Assembly: GCF_000406145.1 (NCBI RefSeq) | Contig: NZ_CM001976.1 | Span: 990,605-997,162 of the forward strand | Source: Dickeya dadantii NCPPB 898 | GTDB lineage: Bacteria; Pseudomonadota; Gammaproteobacteria; Enterobacterales; Enterobacteriaceae | DNA length: 6,558 nt | Reading direction: 5' to 3' | Shown: positions 1 through 6,558 of the stretch, one piece after another | Position numbering within the stretch: position 1 is the stretch's first letter | How the letters are laid out: every line of letters starts with the position of its first letter | The notes under the pieces: model-generated | Seen by the model: only the letters and a program-made list of their open reading frames with translations | Databases searched by the model: none | Told to the model about the DNA's origin: nothing | Position numbers and translations under genes: made by a program

Positions 1-72
1 GAATGTCTCAGGGCGTGAAGCGGACGTAGCGTTTACGGCATGCTCGGTCAATTAACCCTCTAGATAGATGTA

Positions 73-105
73 TATCTTCGGGCTTTTCTTATAAGCCTGA
101 AGATA
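73..105 (-). terminator. Imperfect hairpin downstream of the MFS transporter stop codon; possible terminator
   Basis: TATCTTCGGGCTT (73-85) pairs with AAGCCTGAAGATA (93-105): a 13-bp stem with one mismatch and a 7-nt loop. It lies about 30 nt past the stop at 136-138. There is no clean U-tract on either strand, so this is only a weak terminator call. Confidence 0.3.
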
Positions 106-135
106 CAACCAGTAGCAACCACTTTGAGATGGTGT

Positions 136-1368
136 TTACTGGCTTTGCTTTGTATTTGGCATAAACAGAGTGGCGAATCCCAGCAAAGGCAGGAAAGCAC
201 ACAGTCTGTAAACCCACTCGATGCCATACATATCCGCCAGTTTTCCAAGTCCTGCGGCGGCGAGCCCACCCACACCAAACATCGTACCAAACATGATCCC
301 GGCCACCATCCCTGCACGACCGGGGACGATTTCCTGAGCGTAAACAACAAGCGCAGAGAAAGCCGAAGACAGAATCAGGCCGATAAAAATGGTGAACACG
401 ATCGTCCACACCAGGCCGACGTGTGGCAGTAACAGCGAAAAGGGAATGACGCCTAAAAATGAGATCCAGACCACGGCCTTACGGCCAATGCGATCGCCAA
501 CCGGTCCGCCGGCAAAGGTCCCCACCGCCACGGCCGCAAGAAACGCAAACAGGCAGAACTGCGCGTGCTCCAGTGGCATGCTGAAGCGGTGGACGAGATA
601 AAAGGTGAAATAGTTGCTCAGCGAGGCAATGTAGGTAAATTTGGCGAGCATCAGAACGCTGACCACAACCAGGGCCTGGGATACTTTCACCCTGGAAAGT
701 TTCTGCATCGGGGCGCTGCCGTGGCGCTTCATGTGCGCCTGGCCGTGCCGGGCGGACCACTGGCTGAGCCTGGTCAAAATGACAATGGCGACAAGCGCAC
801 AAAGCATCAGCCAGGCCACAGAAAGCTGGCCATGAGGAATAATCAGCAGCGCGGCCAGCAGAGGACCAAACGCCGAACCCGCGTTCCCGCCGACCTGAAA
901 AGCAGATTGAGCGGTACCAAACTGCCCCCCCGAAGCCATGCGGGCGATGCGGGATGCCTCCGGATGGAATACGGACGATCCAACGCCAACTAGCGCAGCG
1001 GCAAGCAAAATCATCATGAAATTTCCGGCAACCGCGAGCAGTCCGATCCCCAGGAAGGTGACCCCCATTCCCGCGGGCAAAAGAAAGGGTTTGGGGTGTT
1101 TATCGGTGTAAAGCCCGACCCAGGGCTGAAGCAAGGACGCCGTTATCTGGTACACGAGGGATATCAGGCCAATCTGCGCGTACGTGAGCGTAAAGTTCGC
1201 CTTAAGCATGGGATAAATCGAGGGCAGCACGGCCTGAATCATGTCATTACAGCCGTGCGCGAGCGCTGTAGCACCCACGATGCTGACAAGGAACCCCTGA
1301 GTGGAGCCGGTCGTTTCTGAGGCGGGGATCGTCGGTGAATGTTCGGGTTCTGTGGAATGCGAAGCCAT
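136..1368 (-). CDS. fsr: MFS transporter, Fsr (fosmidomycin resistance) family, 410 aa
   Basis: This is the inner ATG (cat at 1366-1368) of the 136..1722 ORF, giving MASHSTEPEH.... The translation is collinear with E. coli Fsr as I recall it. Shared blocks include GCNDMIQ, LLQPWVGLYTDKHP, SSVFHPEASRIARMASGG, AQSAFQVGGNAGSAFGPLLAA, YAQEIVPGRAGMVAGIMFG and YRLCAFLPLLG. The length is similar (about 406 aa in E. coli) and about 12 hydrophobic segments are present. The 118 codons upstream of this ATG overlap the divergent AraC gene and look non-coding. Confidence 0.85.
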   Translation of the reverse strand: MASHSTEPEHSPTIPASETTGSTQGFLVSIVGATALAHGCNDMIQAVLPSIYPMLKANFTLTYAQIGLISLVYQITASLLQPWVGLYTDKHPKPFLLPAGMGVTFLGIGLLAVAGNFMMILLAAALVGVGSSVFHPEASRIARMASGGQFGTAQSAFQVGGNAGSAFGPLLAALLIIPHGQLSVAWLMLCALVAIVILTRLSQWSARHGQAHMKRHGSAPMQKLSRVKVSQALVVVSVLMLAKFTYIASLSNYFTFYLVHRFSMPLEHAQFCLFAFLAAVAVGTFAGGPVGDRIGRKAVVWISFLGVIPFSLLLPHVGLVWTIVFTIFIGLILSSAFSALVVYAQEIVPGRAGMVAGIMFGTMFGVGGLAAAGLGKLADMYGIEWVYRLCAFLPLLGFATLFMPNTKQSQ

Positions 1369-1503
1369 GTTCTTGTCTCTTTGCAGATGAAGGTAAGTCG
1401 GTTTTAATGGTGCGTTTTTTGCTACAGTTGTCCGTAATACCAGTCTTTCACCAGCCAGGACGCCGTCAGCCGGATAATCATAAATGCAGGGCTTTAATCT
1501 GAA
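1369..1503. promoter_or_regulatory. Divergent intergenic region between the fsr-like and AraC-family genes; presumed to hold both promoters
   Basis: A 135-bp gap separates two divergently oriented start codons. No convincing -35/-10 pair or operator could be fixed by eye, and the AraC start at 1504 lacks an obvious Shine-Dalgarno. Confidence 0.35.
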
Positions 1504-2271
1504 ATGCCAAACAATATAGATAAAGCGCCAAGACACGACGAGACGATCGGGTGGTCTGTGCTTGCCAGAAGCTACCGGCGGGGTGATATCGATCCCCCCC
1601 ATTATCACGCTGAGGGGCAATTGCTGTATGCAACTCAGGGGGTGATGCTGGTTGAAACGGGTGAAAAGCGCTGGGTGATCCCCCCTCAGCGCGCGCTCTG
1701 GCTCCCGGTACTTCAGGAGCACAGCTACAGCCTACTTTCACATACCGAACTCCGCACGATGTACTTCAGCCGCAGCCTCATTGACGCGTGCAGTCGCTTT
1801 ACCAAAAGCGACGCCGTCCACGTCATCACAGCGACGGCCCTGGTGAAGGAGCTGATTGCCGGACTGTTTAGCGCCGACTACAAGGCAGCAAGCCAGCGGA
1901 CAATGGCGCTGTTGTTAATGGAGATCCTCAGTGAAGCAGAGCACCGGGTGACCGAACTGCCGATGCCGCAGGACGAGCGCCTGTCCCGGGTGGCCGCCGA
2001 TCTGCTGGTTAACCAGCGCTGGGCAACGCCAGTGAGCGACTTGGCGGATCTGGCGACCATGTCAGAACGTACGTTCTCCCGGCTTTTTATCCAGGACACG
2101 GGGTTCAGCTTCAGAAACTGGAAGCAGCGGGCGCGGATCTGCGTCTCGCTGGATCTACTGTCTGCCGGCGTTCCTATCAAGCAGGTCGCCTATCAGCTCG
2201 GATTTTCCTGCCCGGCCGCGTTTACGGCGGCATTCCGCTCTATATTGGGCGCAACACCCGTGATTTTTTGA
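1504..2271 (+). CDS. AraC-family transcriptional regulator with N-terminal cupin domain, 255 aa
   Basis: The N-terminus has a cupin-like HYHAEGQLLYATQGVMLVETGEKRWVIPPQRALWLP. The C-terminus has the double HTH typical of AraC/XylS (MSERTFSRLFIQDTGFSFRNWKQRARI...IKQVAYQLGFSCPAAFTAAFRSILGATP). The ORF is intact, with an ATG start and TGA at 2269-2271. Confidence 0.85.
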   Translation: MPNNIDKAPRHDETIGWSVLARSYRRGDIDPPHYHAEGQLLYATQGVMLVETGEKRWVIPPQRALWLPVLQEHSYSLLSHTELRTMYFSRSLIDACSRFTKSDAVHVITATALVKELIAGLFSADYKAASQRTMALLLMEILSEAEHRVTELPMPQDERLSRVAADLLVNQRWATPVSDLADLATMSERTFSRLFIQDTGFSFRNWKQRARICVSLDLLSAGVPIKQVAYQLGFSCPAAFTAAFRSILGATPVIF

Positions 2272-2436
2272 TCTAAATTTTGCCGTTATAGGCCCTCTCA
2301 ATGAAAGCACGGATAATCAACTAAATAATTCCGCTAGTAACTCATCGTCCTCTTAAGGTCTGTTGAGGTGGACTTCCGCTTCACGCTCTTGAGGGACAAC
2401 CATACTCAAATCTCCCACATTGCAGGAGATTCGAGT

Positions 2437-2698: not shown

Positions 2699-3100
2699 TT
2701 AGATAGCAAAGGTTTCTAGCGTTTTACCACTTTCCAGCGCAGCAGCGATAGCTTTAGGCGTTCGGCCCTGACCTGTCCACGTCTGTTCGTTGCCGTTTTC
2801 ATCGGTATATTTGTATTTGGCAGGACGGGGAGTGCGTTTGGTTTTTGCTGTTTTACTGGTAACAACAGCGCCGAACAGTTCAGACGGATCAATACCATCT
2901 TCCAGCAGTTTTGCACGTAAGGCTTCAATTTTAGCCTGACGCTCTGCGTTTTGTTGCTGTGCGCTGGCTTCTTCTTCACGCCGGTCTTCAACAATGGCGG
3001 TCAGTTTTTCCAGCATTTCTTCCAGTGTTGGCAGATCGGTCTCACGAGCCTGAGCACGAAGGGTGCGAATGTTATTTAATATTTTTAGGGCTTCACTCAT
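2699..3100 (-). CDS. hns: H-NS family nucleoid-associated / xenogeneic-silencing protein (accessory paralogue), 133 aa
   Basis: [20 protein letters not shown]...LEEMLEKL is nearly identical to the H-NS/StpA N-terminal dimerisation helix. The C-terminal [27 protein letters not shown] carries the [12 protein letters not shown]-binding loop. I chose ATG at 3098-3100 (MSEALK) over 3106 because AGGA then lies about 9 nt upstream. Confidence 0.9.
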
Positions 3101-3139
3101 TATCATTTATCCTGAATGTTGAACGTCATAAACATCATA

Positions 3140-3355
3140 CTATAAACGATAAAATAAAGCAGATACTATAAATTTGCTTGATGCCTGATTATCCGTTTTT
3201 GTAAGTTTATATTTCTCGTTCTTGAACTGTTTTTTATTTTTGTTACTTGAATGGTATGTGAAAATAGAAAGCGCGATAAAAAAGATAATTAATCTGGAAA
3301 ATACGGCGACAATATTGACAGTAATATCGGGAAAATCCTGTTTTTCCCATTCCAT
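3140..3355 (-). CDS. Hypothetical 71-aa single-pass membrane protein (speculative)
   Basis: This is the internal ATG (cat at 3353-3355) of the 3140..3448 ORF. The product is MEWEKQDFPD-ITVNIVAVFSRLIIFFIALSIFTY-HSSNKNKKQFKNEKYKLTK.... It has an acidic N-terminus, one hydrophobic span of about 23 residues and a Lys-rich tail (positive-inside pattern). A 102-codon open frame in about 30% GC DNA is unusual. There is no visible Shine-Dalgarno, and the 3' end overlaps the expected hns promoter region. Confidence 0.3.
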   Translation of the reverse strand: MEWEKQDFPDITVNIVAVFSRLIIFFIALSIFTYHSSNKNKKQFKNEKYKLTKTDNQASSKFIVSALFYRL

Positions 3356-3401
3356 GCTTATGAACGGGTTCTGTTTGTTTACAATATCAGCAGGCAACTT
3401 A

Positions 3402-3620
3402 TTAAAAATCAAATAAACTTTGCAGTTGAATCTCCAACCCGGCAGCAATCACCCCAATCACTTCCAGAGTCGGATTCCTAACACCCCTCTCAATGCCGCT
3501 GATATAGGTGCGATCCAAACCGCACTTGTCGGCGAAGGCTTCCTGGGAGAGCCCTGCCTGTAAGCGAAGCGTTTTTACACGTTGCCCAAAACGGGCGGTG
3601 ATGTCTTTTGTATTTTTCAT
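3402..3620 (-). CDS. XRE-family helix-turn-helix transcriptional regulator, 72 aa
   Basis: MKNTKDITARFGQRVKTLRLQAGLSQEAFADKCGLDRTYISGIERGVRNPTLEVIGVIAAGLEIQLQSLFDF is a canonical HTH_3/Cro-CI pattern (G.R.+.LR...GLSQE.LA...G......IS.IERG...P.L..L..IA..L). I chose the start at 3620 because MK.. is the start shared with the paralogue at 3944. Confidence 0.8.
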   Translation of the reverse strand: MKNTKDITARFGQRVKTLRLQAGLSQEAFADKCGLDRTYISGIERGVRNPTLEVIGVIAAGLEIQLQSLFDF

Positions 3621-3672
3621 GCCGATAAGCATCATCCCATGTTGCTTATCAGACCACGGACGATGAGTCACA
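3621..3672 (-). promoter_or_regulatory. Conserved leader/operator segment of XRE copy 1
   Basis: A perfect inverted repeat, GATAAGCA (3624-3631)-N11-TGCTTATC (3643-3650), abuts the start codon. CCACGGAC (3654-3661) and AGTCACA (3666-3672) follow. All these elements recur in the same order upstream of copy 2. Confidence 0.4.
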
Positions 3673-3712
3673 TATGAGCTACTTCGTCGATTTAATCGAT
3701 AAGGTCCAAAAA

Positions 3713-3944
3713 TCAGGCTGGATCGCGGAATACGAAGAGTGTGGTGAGATCGGTATGCAATCCAGTCGCAAGAATATAGAGCACTTCAAGCGTTGGGTTT
3801 CTCACCCCTCGCTCAATGCCGCTGATGTAAGTTCGATCCAGCCCGCACTTTTCAGCGAAGGCTATCCTGAGATAGCCCCGCCTGCAATCTGAGCGCTTTA
3901 ACACGTTGTCCCAGCAGGGTTTTGACCGAATCGGATGTTTTCAT
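3713..3944 (-). pseudogene. XRE-family HTH regulator paralogue disrupted by a +1 nt frameshift
   Basis: ATG (cat at 3942-3944) gives MKTSDSVKTLLGQRVKALRLQAGLSQ, then DSLR*. Removing one base near 3864 (ggctAtcctg here versus ggcttcctg in copy 1) restores EAFAEKCGLDRTYISGIERGVRNPTLEVLYILATGLHTDLTTLFVFRDPA*. The span is 232 nt, which is 3n+1. It could also be a sequencing error. Confidence 0.65.
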
Positions 3945-4296: not shown

Positions 4297-4359
4297 GGGC
4301 GACTTCCCTGATAAGAATGACGTTATTCGTCGTGGTAAGAGTTTTTAAAGTCCGGATGA

Positions 4360-4569
4360 GGTGTTAAGGCCGATTTTCAGGGGCCTGGCTGCATTGTGAT
4401 TACCGTGCTGGATATCCACGCACTGTGGCAAGACCTGCACGCACTGAGTATCGCGCCGTTTGAAGAGTACGCCGTCACGTACTGGCTGAACCGCTTTCCG
4501 GGCGGGCCGGATGTGGCAGGGATGGAGAGCGGGCAGGGCAGTAAGTCACCGGTACTGAGCGGCAGGTAA
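4360..4569 (+). other. GC-rich coding-like remnant, or a short GTG-initiated ORF (4396-4569, 57 aa), of unknown function
   Basis: The frame is open from the TGA at 4357-4359 to the TAA at 4567-4569: GVKADFQGPGCIVITVLDIHALWQDLHALSIAPFEEYAVTYWLNRFPGGPDVAGMESGQGSKSPVLSGR. There is no ATG. The only start candidate is GTG at 4396, with a poor SD. The composition is unlike the flanking AT-rich DNA, and a hairpin follows directly. I recognise no family. Confidence 0.25.
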
Positions 4570-4570
4570 T

Positions 4571-4610
4571 AATAAGCCGTAAGGATCGTTGGGATCGCTT
4601 CCGGCTTATT
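4571..4610. terminator. Strong hairpin between convergent reading frames; candidate bidirectional intrinsic terminator
   Basis: AATAAGCCG...CGGCTTATT forms the outer 9 bp, with AAG/CTT and GATC/GATC inner pairs. That gives about 16 bp with one mismatch and one bulge, and a loop of about 5 nt. It starts 2 nt after the TAA at 4567-4569 and ends 2 nt before the immunity-gene stop (4613-4615). GTTTAAAT follows on the plus strand and AUUAUUA on the minus strand. Confidence 0.5.
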
Positions 4611-4612
4611 GT

Positions 4613-5092
4613 TTAAATAACTACATATCTTTCTTTTGCAAAACCGACAGGCCAATGACCTGAGTAATAAATCTCAGTAATCCTTTCCCATCTGTTACCA
4701 AGGGAAAAATATCTCTCTGTAATAAGTTGCCTAAACGCAAAACAAATTGCATTTCTCGCTGCAACACTAAAATCATGAGGAGAAGAGATAAAATCAGCTT
4801 TATTAAGCTCTCTTGTTGCAGAAATCACATATTTATTTATCTCTTTACGTAATTCAATGAGATCTTTTGGATTGGCTTGTTTCTTATAAAATGGATCATC
4901 TTGAGTGGGTGAAGTCGGAAGCCATTCGGTTTTTTTATAGAACCCTTTAAAATCAGTATCTGATGGCTCAATGAATACTTTTCTTACATTTTCAATGAGT
5001 ATCACATCTCCTTCATGGAGGTTGTTAACCCCCATGAGAGAGAAAAAGCTAGCAGCTTCTATTTTTTTTATCTCTTCAGTTATATCAACCAT
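4613..5092 (-). CDS. Hypothetical protein, candidate cognate immunity protein for the Rhs C-terminal toxin, 159 aa
   Basis: ATG (5090-5092) overlaps the Rhs TGA (5085-5087) in the string ATGGTTGA. AAGG lies about 9 nt upstream. The region is very AT-rich (about 27% GC in 4801-4860). No signal peptide or TM segment is present. Its position immediately 3' of a polymorphic-toxin domain is the canonical immunity position. I recognise no family. Confidence 0.75.
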
Positions 5093-6558
5093 ATGGCAGC
5101 CTTAAATCGGTTATCGTTCCAGGGGGTAAAGCTTTGCGTCCTTGTTGAATCGTTGTGCGAAGCGTTCCTCCGGCAGCATGAGGGCCGGGTATTCCGGGAA
5201 GTGAATGGTTCGGCAATGTTCCATTTGTTGGCATTAAATTCCACCATTTATTTGCACCACCACTCTCCAGCGGAATTATATGATGTGGTGTAGCTCCTTT
5301 CGGCCACGTCATCCCCATATTGGCCTCCCATTGTTTCATTAGGTAATCTTGAGTTTTCACAAACTCTTTTCTAGCTATTTGGTTTTGGAAAGCGCTACGC
5401 CTCTGGATTACTGGAAGATTGTTTCGCAGTATTTGTGCTTGTTTTGATGTAATACTTCCACCCGGTGAAGCAACTTTATTTGCATCTTTTATTATATCGT
5501 CAAGTACAGAGCACCCCGCCAACCCCAGCGGATCGATCCAAGTTGAAGGATTCGGCGCGTAAGCGTAGTTATTTTCCCCGCCCAGCACCCCTATCGGGTC
5601 TGGCGAGACATAACACCCACCGGCCGGGTCGTAGTACCGGAAGCGGTTATAGCACAGCCCGCTTTCGCTGTCACGGAGCTGCCCGGCGAAGGCCAGACCG
5701 GGGTCCGGACTTTCCGATTTTTCTGCCTGCCGCTGGCCCCACAGCGTGGCCTTCGGCGCCTGCCAGCGCAGGGTGCCGTCCTGCGCGAACAGCGCCTGCG
5801 GCGTACCGTTCTGGCTGCTGGTCACAAAATCCGTTTCCCAGTCGCCGCCGGTATGCTGGCGCTGCTGCACTACCAGCTCCCAGCCGTTGTAGACCCAGTG
5901 GCGACGCTGTATCAGTTGGCCGTGGCGGTAGTGGCGGATTTCCGCTATCTGGTCGCCGTCCCACTGATAGCGGGTCTCTTCGGCTTTCTGGTCACAGCGT
6001 TTGCCCACCCGGCGGCCGAACGGGTCGTAACGGTACAGCCAGCGCTCGCCGGTCGGGGTATCCACCACCCGTAGCTGGTTGCGGCTGTCCCAGCGGTACT
6101 GCCACACCTGCGGACGGTAGCCCGGCTGCACCACCTGTTTACGGATAAGCCGTCCGGCCCTGTCGTACTGGTAATGGGTGTCATCGTGCTGAACCAGTCG
6201 GCCAGACTGCCACTCGGTGAGGCGGCCTGCCTCCTGCGGCAGGCCGCTGCGGGTGTAGTGAAAGCGGGCGGTGGTGTCCACCGGTTTGCCCGCACCACCG
6301 CTTAACACCTCCTGCACCCGGCCGGTGGCATCCAGACGATAACCTTCGGCATCGCGGTTGTGACGCACCCCGGTCAGGTTACCGGCACCGTCGTAGCGGT
6401 ATTCCCGCGTCTGCGCTGCCAGCAGGTGGCCGTCCTGCTGTGCGCCGCTCATCTCCCGCGTCAGCCAGCCCATCACGTCGTATTCCCGCTGCTGGACAAA
6501 GCCGCTGCCGCCGCGGCGATGTGACTCGCGGCCCGCCGCGTCCTGGGTCAGGGTCAGG
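5085..6558 (-). CDS. Rhs-family YD-repeat protein, C-terminal part (5' end lies beyond the window) with a variable C-terminal toxin domain
   Basis: Repeated YD motifs are present ([34 protein letters not shown]), plus the core terminus [19 protein letters not shown]...[11 protein letters not shown]. The M at 6476 in the ORF track is really an internal GTG. Read by hand, the frame stays open to 6557 (..[32 protein letters not shown]..). Confidence 0.92.
5088..5519 (-). other. Rhs-CT: 144-aa variable toxin domain with an HNH / beta-beta-alpha-Me (colicin-DNase-like) signature
   Basis: The domain begins right after DPLGL (codons 5520-5534). The motif is [38 protein letters not shown] (5178-5291). 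It compares with colicin E9 [30 protein letters not shown]. GC drops from about 65% (5641-5700) to about 40-47% (5301-5420). Confidence 0.6.

Follow-up and report, generated by a model that had tools for sequence, protein, structure and literature searches.

A putative Rhs2-type DNase tip and its RhsI2-like immunity gene at the end of an rhs gene of Dickeya dadantii

Rhs2 of Serratia marcescens Db10 is an effector whose delivery, and the killing that it brings about, depend on a type VI secretion system (T6SS); its C-terminal tip (Rhs2CT) degrades plasmid DNA in vivo and is neutralised by the protein RhsI2 (Alcoforado Diniz and Coulthurst, 2015; PMC4524185). The authors of that study described the Rhs2 tip as carrying a partial HNH domain with 31% identity to RhsB-CT of Dickeya dadantii 3937 and as being paired with an unrelated immunity protein, and they named Rhs2CT/RhsI2 a different nuclease/immunity subfamily (PMC4524185). 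Here we analyse a putative toxin-immunity pair resembling this prototype that forms the end of an rhs gene in D. dadantii NCPPB 898. It is encoded on the minus strand of a 6,558-nucleotide stretch of the chromosome (NZ_CM001976.1, positions 990,605 to 997,162), which we refer to as the window and whose internal coordinates are used throughout.

Crystal structures of Rhs2CT were reported in a recent preprint (Mol Avelar et al., 2025; 10.1101/2025.10.28.685041). In vitro, the domain acts as a DNase with divalent cations such as Zn2+, an activity that is abolished by ethylenediaminetetraacetic acid (EDTA) or by RhsI2, while RNase activity, including that on total RNA, is absent and the H1369A variant is inactive (10.1101/2025.10.28.685041). 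In target cells Rhs2CT causes DNA breaks that score positive in terminal deoxynucleotidyl transferase nick end labelling (TUNEL; PMC4524185; 10.1101/2025.10.28.685041). Its active site resembles that of colicin E9 in the eyes of the authors but is atypical, with H1368 and H1369 on strand β2 and with H1394 and H1403 placed in a disordered Gly/Pro-rich loop, not on the helix of the ββα-Me fold; RhsI2 binds away from this site (10.1101/2025.10.28.685041). Rhs2CT also binds EF-Tu in a specific complex, which T6SS-mediated intoxication of bacteria requires and which is lost when the substitutions E1341R, R1344A, A1378W and K1380E are combined, and it exerts an antifungal activity via nuclear import (10.1101/2025.10.28.685041). 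The function of the PxxxxDPxGL motif as the autocleavage site of Rhs proteins is established and is restated in the same work (10.1101/2025.10.28.685041).

In the window, a minus-strand open reading frame (ORF) at 5085-6476 (463 amino acids) is part of a frame that stays open, without a stop codon, to the window edge at 6557 (490 amino acids). Positions 5535-6557 encode the C-terminal part of the Rhs YD-repeat core, which extends past the window and is recognised by Pfam (RHS_repeat, E = 9.8e-12) and NCBIfam (Rhs_assc_core, E = 1e-22; RHS_core). This core closes with the PxxxxDPxGL motif (5520-5549), the predicted site of autoproteolytic toxin release according to the Rhs literature, whose DPLGL codons occupy 5520-5534. 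A tail of 144 amino acids (5088-5519) follows and ends at a stop codon (5085-5087); within it, the motif HH-x2-P-x3-GG-x5-N-x2-P-x7-H-x8-H spans 5178-5285. An earlier note on this DNA had given the core end, the length of the tail and the extent of the motif, and these coordinates were all borne out. The tail is succeeded on the same strand by an ORF of 159 amino acids (4613-5092), the ATG of which overlaps the toxin stop codon by 8 nucleotides (ATGGTTGA, 5085-5092). As judged from homology, this feature is very probably the toxin-immunity terminus of a full-length Rhs effector of the T6SS, in which the tail would be a metal-dependent DNase and the adjoining ORF would encode an RhsI2-type immunity protein.

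The relationship to the Serratia system is close. The tail matches S. marcescens Rhs2CT (PDB 8CM0 and 9T38, chain A, deposited as 'Rhs-family protein') with 83.6% identity over 140 of its 144 residues (phmmer E = 5.5e-80), and a profile search with the toxin against the PDB sequences retrieved Rhs2CT at E = 3e-86. An AlphaFold2 model of the tail (predicted local distance difference test, 85.3; predicted template-modelling score, 0.79) had 9t38_D, 9t38_A and 8cm0 as its top Foldseek matches (E = 3.6e-18 to 3.2e-17), and the template-modelling scores to 9t38 and 8cm0 were 0.75 when normalised to the query and 0.90-0.93 when normalised to the target. In this model, the approximately 75 residues ahead of the motif form three helices, the longest of which (residues 43-68 of the tail) holds two of the four EF-Tu contact positions that were mutated in Rhs2CT, and a short strand at TDL (136-138) in the 30-residue end completes the fold. 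The product of the 159-amino-acid ORF corresponds to 8cm0_B ('Immunity protein RhsI2'), to which it is 54% identical over 155 amino acids (phmmer E = 3.2e-56), and it found no match in Pfam, NCBIfam or PADLOC. The earlier note had proposed that the tail is a metal-dependent DNase and that this ORF is its immunity partner; the identity to Rhs2CT, together with the shared active-site residues described below, and the similarity to RhsI2 lend support to both proposals.

Like its Serratia counterpart, the Dickeya pair combines a toxin domain of the same length, in which the four active-site histidines and the residue equivalent to N1383 are identical, with an RhsI2-type gene directly downstream, and it sits on a PAAR-Rhs scaffold that is preceded by vgrG and the gene of an Eag chaperone; its predicted fold can be superposed on the crystal structures. 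It differs in stemming from a plant pathogen of another genus, in carrying N in place of H1388, and in a C-terminal extension of three residues (PYG). The scaffold became apparent in a 20-kb locus from the chromosome of D. dadantii DSM 18020 (CP023467.1), which is 100% identical to the window. There, the full rhs gene encodes 1446 amino acids with PAAR, DUF6531 and RHS repeats, and the gene order is hcp, vgrG, a DcrB-fold (Eag-type) chaperone gene, rhs and the 159-amino-acid ORF. Hence, the traits of a T6SS PAAR-Rhs effector, as read from sequence, are all present: the PAAR domain, RHS repeats, the PxxxxDPxGL motif, and vgrG, hcp and eag neighbours.

This genetic setting bears on the possibility that the module has gone out of use, being an orphaned or inactivated toxin in decay or kept silent. 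Such a history would be in keeping with the finding that the relatives in the databases are for the most part short orphan fragments (144-236 amino acids), that the related copy in Pectobacterium is an orphan module behind another rhs gene, and that truncated regulator genes occur in the island around the locus. Yet the toxin is in frame with an intact 1446-amino-acid PAAR-Rhs gene that comes immediately after hcp, vgrG and the chaperone gene; its catalytic residues, its cleavage motif and the immunity gene, whose start overlaps the toxin stop, are intact; and the locus is found at 97-99% identity in two other assemblies. We therefore consider a remnant unlikely and retain the reading of a complete Rhs effector.

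The catalytic core predicted for the tail (5178-5285) could be mapped residue by residue onto the Serratia domain, from whose structure the roles of the residues are taken. H398 and H399 of the called ORF (codons 5280-5285) correspond to H1368 and H1369, N413 to N1383, H424 to H1394 and H433 to H1403; counted from the first residue of the tail, these are H79, H80, N94, H105 and H114. In the model, the HH pair is located on the first strand (77-80) of a predicted hairpin, the GG turn follows, and N94 adjoins the second strand (95-98). The layout of an HNH nuclease is present, with the histidine that would serve as general base on β1, the asparagine at β2, and the predicted distal histidine ligands downstream. 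Residues 99-118, however, form a Gly/Pro-rich loop that contains H105 and H114, and the next helix comprises just residues 119-122, so that the distal ligands do not reside on the helix following the β-hairpin as they do in ββα-Me enzymes, a deviation that was also described for the Serratia structure. We aligned 22 complete toxin-immunity pairs from different genomes (taken from loci L004-L026, the window and PDB 8CM0), and H79, H80, N94, H105 and H114 are invariant across them, as they are in alignment A2. With this invariance, a chance occurrence of the motif is excluded.

The earlier note had compared the spacing of the motif to that of the colicin E9/pyocin HNH motif. This comparison holds for the first half, HH-x2-P-x3-GG, which the tail has in common with the colicin E9- and pyocin AP41-type HNH DNases, and the Dickeya enzyme is presumably metal-dependent as they are; the toxin profile matched pyocin AP41 at the segment HHVVPLESGGA with E = 0.28. 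It does not hold for the distal half, where H-x8-H in a loop stands against H-x3-H on a helix in the colicins and pyocins. The tail further departs from these bacteriocins in lacking a match to Pfam Colicin-DNase and a significant profile or fold match to them, in having an immunity protein unrelated to the Im proteins, and in its likely delivery by the T6SS instead of Tol/Ton-mediated import. With RhsB-CT of D. dadantii 3937 (Koskiniemi et al., 2013, as presented in PMC4524185) it shares the species, the position at an Rhs tip, an HNH motif, and in all likelihood the DNase activity and delivery with VgrG; the description given in PMC4524185 sets RhsB-CT apart as a different toxin-immunity subfamily.

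With the non-canonical second half of the motif in mind, a nuclease of another specificity deserves attention, either an RNase or tRNase like some colicin and CdiA tips, or a nickase, whose HNH-like motif would mislead about the substrate. The sub-threshold score of the Pfam HNH model (see below) would fit this explanation, as would the binding of EF-Tu by the Serratia domain, since EF-Tu is also a partner of some CdiA tRNase toxins. But the 84%-identical Serratia domain degrades plasmid DNA, produces TUNEL-positive breaks and is inactive on total RNA, and its active-site residues are all identical in the Dickeya tail. A different substrate is thus very unlikely, and a metal-dependent DNase remains the assignment that we favour.

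Under this assignment, the effector would function as follows. The N-terminal PAAR domain of the 1446-amino-acid protein would cap the VgrG spike, with an Eag-type (DcrB-fold) chaperone encoded alongside, and the YD-repeat shell would enclose the final 144 residues. Autoproteolysis after PxxxxDPLGL would release this C-terminal domain, which in the target cell would act as a metal-dependent DNase with H399 as the catalytic residue and with H398, H424 and H433 as the metal ligands, H424 and H433 being contributed by the flexible Gly/Pro-rich loop and not by a canonical ββα-Me helix. The overlapping 159-amino-acid gene, which would be translationally coupled to the toxin gene, would provide the RhsI2-type immunity protein. 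The DNase activity, the metal dependence and the mode of immunity are projected here from the experiments on the Serratia proteins. More tentative is a dependence on EF-Tu binding for entry into the bacterial cytoplasm, along with a possible antifungal activity. We propose the EF-Tu dependence because the positions E1341, R1344, A1378 and K1380 of the Serratia domain are E, K, A and K in Dickeya; hence, of the four contact residues that had been mutated, three are conserved as such and one shows an R-to-K exchange. Among the 22 family members, these positions are occupied by E in 21, by K or R in 18, by A in 19 and by K in 20. That the Dickeya toxin requires the EF-Tu of its target to reach the cytoplasm, and also kills fungi as Serratia Rhs2CT does, is possible but on balance somewhat doubtful.

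Several observations weigh against the assignment as a whole or against parts of it. The function is deduced from a characterised homologue with 84% identity, and the structural and EF-Tu work on this homologue is a preprint; the EF-Tu proposal is extrapolated from four residues. The immunity protein shares no more than 54% identity with RhsI2, so that its binding mode may differ, and cross-protection between the two systems is uncertain. The loop differs from that of Serratia in a single exchange, H1388 to N418, at a position that varies in the family (N, H, F, R or S). The domain libraries give a cautious picture as well: the search of the tail that the earlier note had suggested yielded Pfam HNH (PF01844) below its gathering threshold (16.5 versus 21.4 bits, E = 0.0096), and neither the tail nor any of 28 family members matched Colicin-DNase (PF12639) or the Tox-HNH clades (AHH, GHH, SHH, WHH, LHH and HNH-EHHH) at E <= 1. 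The structure search that it had likewise suggested recovered the Rhs2CT entries 9t38 and 8cm0 at E of about 1e-18, and beyond them just weak matches to HNH domains at E > 0.2, namely of the Gme HNH nickase and of variants of type I-F Cascade. An hhalign comparison of the family profile with the colicin E9 DNase, for which the sequence did not come from a database record, was not significant (probability 0.4%, E = 0.14) and is not used as evidence. As no more than a lead to a deeper kinship with colicin DNases, we note that it aligned only the N-terminal helices of the toxin (residues 2-67 of the tail) to the N-terminal region of E9 (residues 15-61), with 36% identity over 47 columns (DAxK…G..I…LR…EF…WE).

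HNH_5 of Pfam likewise remained below threshold on the tail, NCBIfam and PADLOC gave no match to it, and the sub-threshold Pfam HNH signal recurred in 24 of the 28 family members (best E = 0.00096), a weak but consistent result. The subfamily is covered by no Pfam or NCBIfam model. The suggestion of the earlier note that the tail might represent a new subfamily nevertheless has to be given up, as the subfamily was already named in 2015 and structurally solved in 2024-25; the Dickeya copy is an ordinary further member of it.

An abrupt break in base composition at DPLGL had been part of the initial description of the locus. The change itself is evident: the GC content is 0.659 in the core (5535-6557), drops to 0.451 in the tail (from 66% to 45% at DPLGL) and reaches 0.341 in the ORF that follows, and GC at third codon positions falls from 0.79 to 0.33 and 0.25, respectively. 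Its proposed sharpness, within about 10 nucleotides, was not upheld. A single maximum-likelihood change point was placed at 5511, 73 log-likelihood (lnL) units above the no-change model, and its 2-lnL interval, 5497-5576, brackets DPLGL; the final 60 or so nucleotides of the core are already intermediate in GC (0.50-0.57). A model with two change points put the breaks at 5576 and at 5095, the latter being the toxin/immunity junction.

Comparison with Pectobacterium peruviense offered an explanation for this pattern. In blastn searches, an orphan rhs-CT/immunity module of that species matched the window with 89.7% identity, and the match was confined to 4562-5662. The Rhs core upstream of 5662 matched, at 76%, a different, upstream rhs gene of P. 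peruviense. The segment 4562-5662, comprising about 130 nucleotides of the core end, the toxin, the immunity gene and about 50 nucleotides beyond it, accordingly appears as an exchangeable cassette. The limitation of the Pectobacterium homology to this cassette supports horizontal exchange as the cause of the composition break, as the earlier note had held, and the recombination junction likely lies inside the core end and not at DPLGL itself. The boundary at the composition break recurs in three independent assemblies. That break and motif arose by coincidence or through faulty assembly and do not mark a biological module boundary, a notion to which the placement of the break no closer than about ±40 nucleotides might lend some room, is refuted by the lnL gain, by this recurrence in three assemblies, and by the occurrence of the same toxin-immunity pair after DPxGL in many genera with cross-genus nucleotide homology confined to the cassette, and its probability is virtually nil.

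The P. peruviense module (L005, 4-4907) is the closest relative of the cassette, with toxin and immunity proteins that are each 92% identical; it is an orphan preceded by a full rhs gene with another tip and with a downstream ORF (138 amino acids) of its own. A megablast search with 4560-5620 against all complete Escherichia coli genomes gave no match. On its distal side, the cassette ends within a GC-rich spacer (4300-4612; GC 0.51-0.60) between the AT-rich immunity gene and a ner-like gene. A 57-amino-acid ORF called on the plus strand of this spacer (4396-4569) contains no domain, and the Pectobacterium homology ends inside it at 4562. When we looked for an orphan Rhs module in the interval from the immunity gene to the ner-like gene, the ORFs 4377-4655 and 4396-4569 both proved to be without domains. 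A scan for terminators 3' of the immunity gene returned one hairpin (4588-4605), which reads as a terminator on the plus strand only, and the number of such sites was no higher than in shuffled sequence.

Relatives of the toxin are widely distributed. A search of 5.8 billion proteins recovered 27 of them, none with precomputed Pfam domains, and the majority are short orphan tips of Rhs proteins that stem from Pectobacterium, Aeromonas, Photorhabdus, Yersinia, Erwinia and Acinetobacter. With the toxin-domain profile, 1.84 billion representative proteins yielded 24 matches with coverage of the entire domain at E < 1e-30 and, at E < 1e-3, 498 matches, the distant ones of which span only profile positions of about 17-100. 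A survey with one genome per species provided 26 loci and thus places the cassette in at least 26 species, among them members of Aeromonas, Pectobacterium, Zymobacter, Lonsdalea, Xenorhabdus, Photorhabdus, Erwinia, many Pseudomonas, Vibrio, Photobacterium and Grimontia, and also planctomycete, verrucomicrobial and myxobacterial metagenome-assembled genomes. In every surveyed locus with downstream DNA, an RhsI2-like ORF abuts or overlaps the toxin stop. When the 22 complete pairs were compared with one another, the toxin proved to be the better conserved partner in 230 of 231 cases (mean identity 74%, versus 46% for the immunity protein; r = 0.88). This faster divergence may reflect a diversification of immunity specificity, with the surface of the toxin being held in place by the binding of EF-Tu and DNA.

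The scaffolds that carry the toxin domain are diverse as well. They include ordinary Rhs proteins, a Rhs protein of 3542 amino acids (P0037), the protein P0038 (5957 amino acids), and P0043, a CdiA-like two-partner-secretion protein of 2285 amino acids with a PT-HINT pre-toxin domain. A sister clade (P0047-P0057, P0052, P0075 and P0094) bears the signature HHVIPLKSGGANEWWNLxPVKHPHTGTIHG, with HPHTGTIHG as its loop motif, on Rhs proteins or on proteins with hemagglutinin repeats, PT-VENN, PT-TG or PAAR-like domains. There is no Pfam model for the tips of either clade. A further branch consists of metagenomic proteins (P0022, P0023, P0039, P0041 and P0042; L030, 4001-5099) of 212-259 amino acids that have a signal-peptide-like N-terminus and a Lys/Arg-rich linker but no Rhs or CdiA scaffold. 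The gene for P0023 is followed by an ORF for a multi-pass membrane protein of 124 amino acids and not by an RhsI2-like gene, which points to another route of delivery and another immunity protein.

The surroundings of the cassette in Dickeya look like a genomic island. In the DSM 18020 locus, a phage-type integrase gene is present further upstream, and beyond the 159-amino-acid ORF follow genes for a Ner-like regulator, for XRE regulators and for an H-NS paralogue. Two tandem XRE-type helix-turn-helix genes lie on the minus strand: one is intact (3402-3671, 89 amino acids; HTH_3, 2.4e-15), and the other is N-terminally truncated (3713-3904, 63 amino acids; HTH_3, 4.1e-11). They share a repeat (3459-3540 and 3782-3863) that is 80% identical over 82 nucleotides. 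The public annotation over the second gene, an opposite-strand ORF of 72 amino acids (3674-3892) without a domain, is probably a miscall, and two other assemblies have an intact 76-amino-acid gene at this position. The H-NS paralogue (2699-3106, minus strand; Histone_HNS_N, 9e-28) adjoins a very AT-rich stretch (3076-3375; GC 0.27-0.33), a combination that is typical of horizontally acquired islands with their own silencer. Genes for an AraC-family regulator and a transporter of the major facilitator superfamily (MFS) in window positions 1-2383, and the IS3-type transposase genes that follow them in the DSM 18020 locus, are absent from loci L002 and L003, which come from two other assemblies of the island and in which the H-NS gene leads almost directly into a ParE toxin-antitoxin pair; this amounts to an insertion/deletion polymorphism of about 3.7 kb. 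The segment 2368-2706 had been considered as an integrase fragment, a candidate that we dropped for want of Pfam support. Rfam gave no match over the whole window.

Collectively, these data allow one Rhs effector of the D. dadantii type strain to be annotated as a putative atypical HNH DNase of the Rhs2 type, paired with an immunity protein of the RhsI2 type, an annotation that the standard Pfam, NCBIfam and PADLOC models do not supply. As a function assignment only, this is of little weight on its own. The survey adds that the cassette extends to many genera of gamma-proteobacteria and to a few distant phyla, on Rhs and CdiA-like scaffolds, that it is always accompanied by an immunity gene, and that its toxin is far better conserved than the immunity protein. 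These points could aid the design of experiments on cross-immunity and on EF-Tu dependence, and they justify a dedicated family model. If the Dickeya toxin were indeed to share the antifungal activity of its Serratia relative, this plant pathogen would possess a dual-kingdom weapon that could be turned against fungal competitors on its host.

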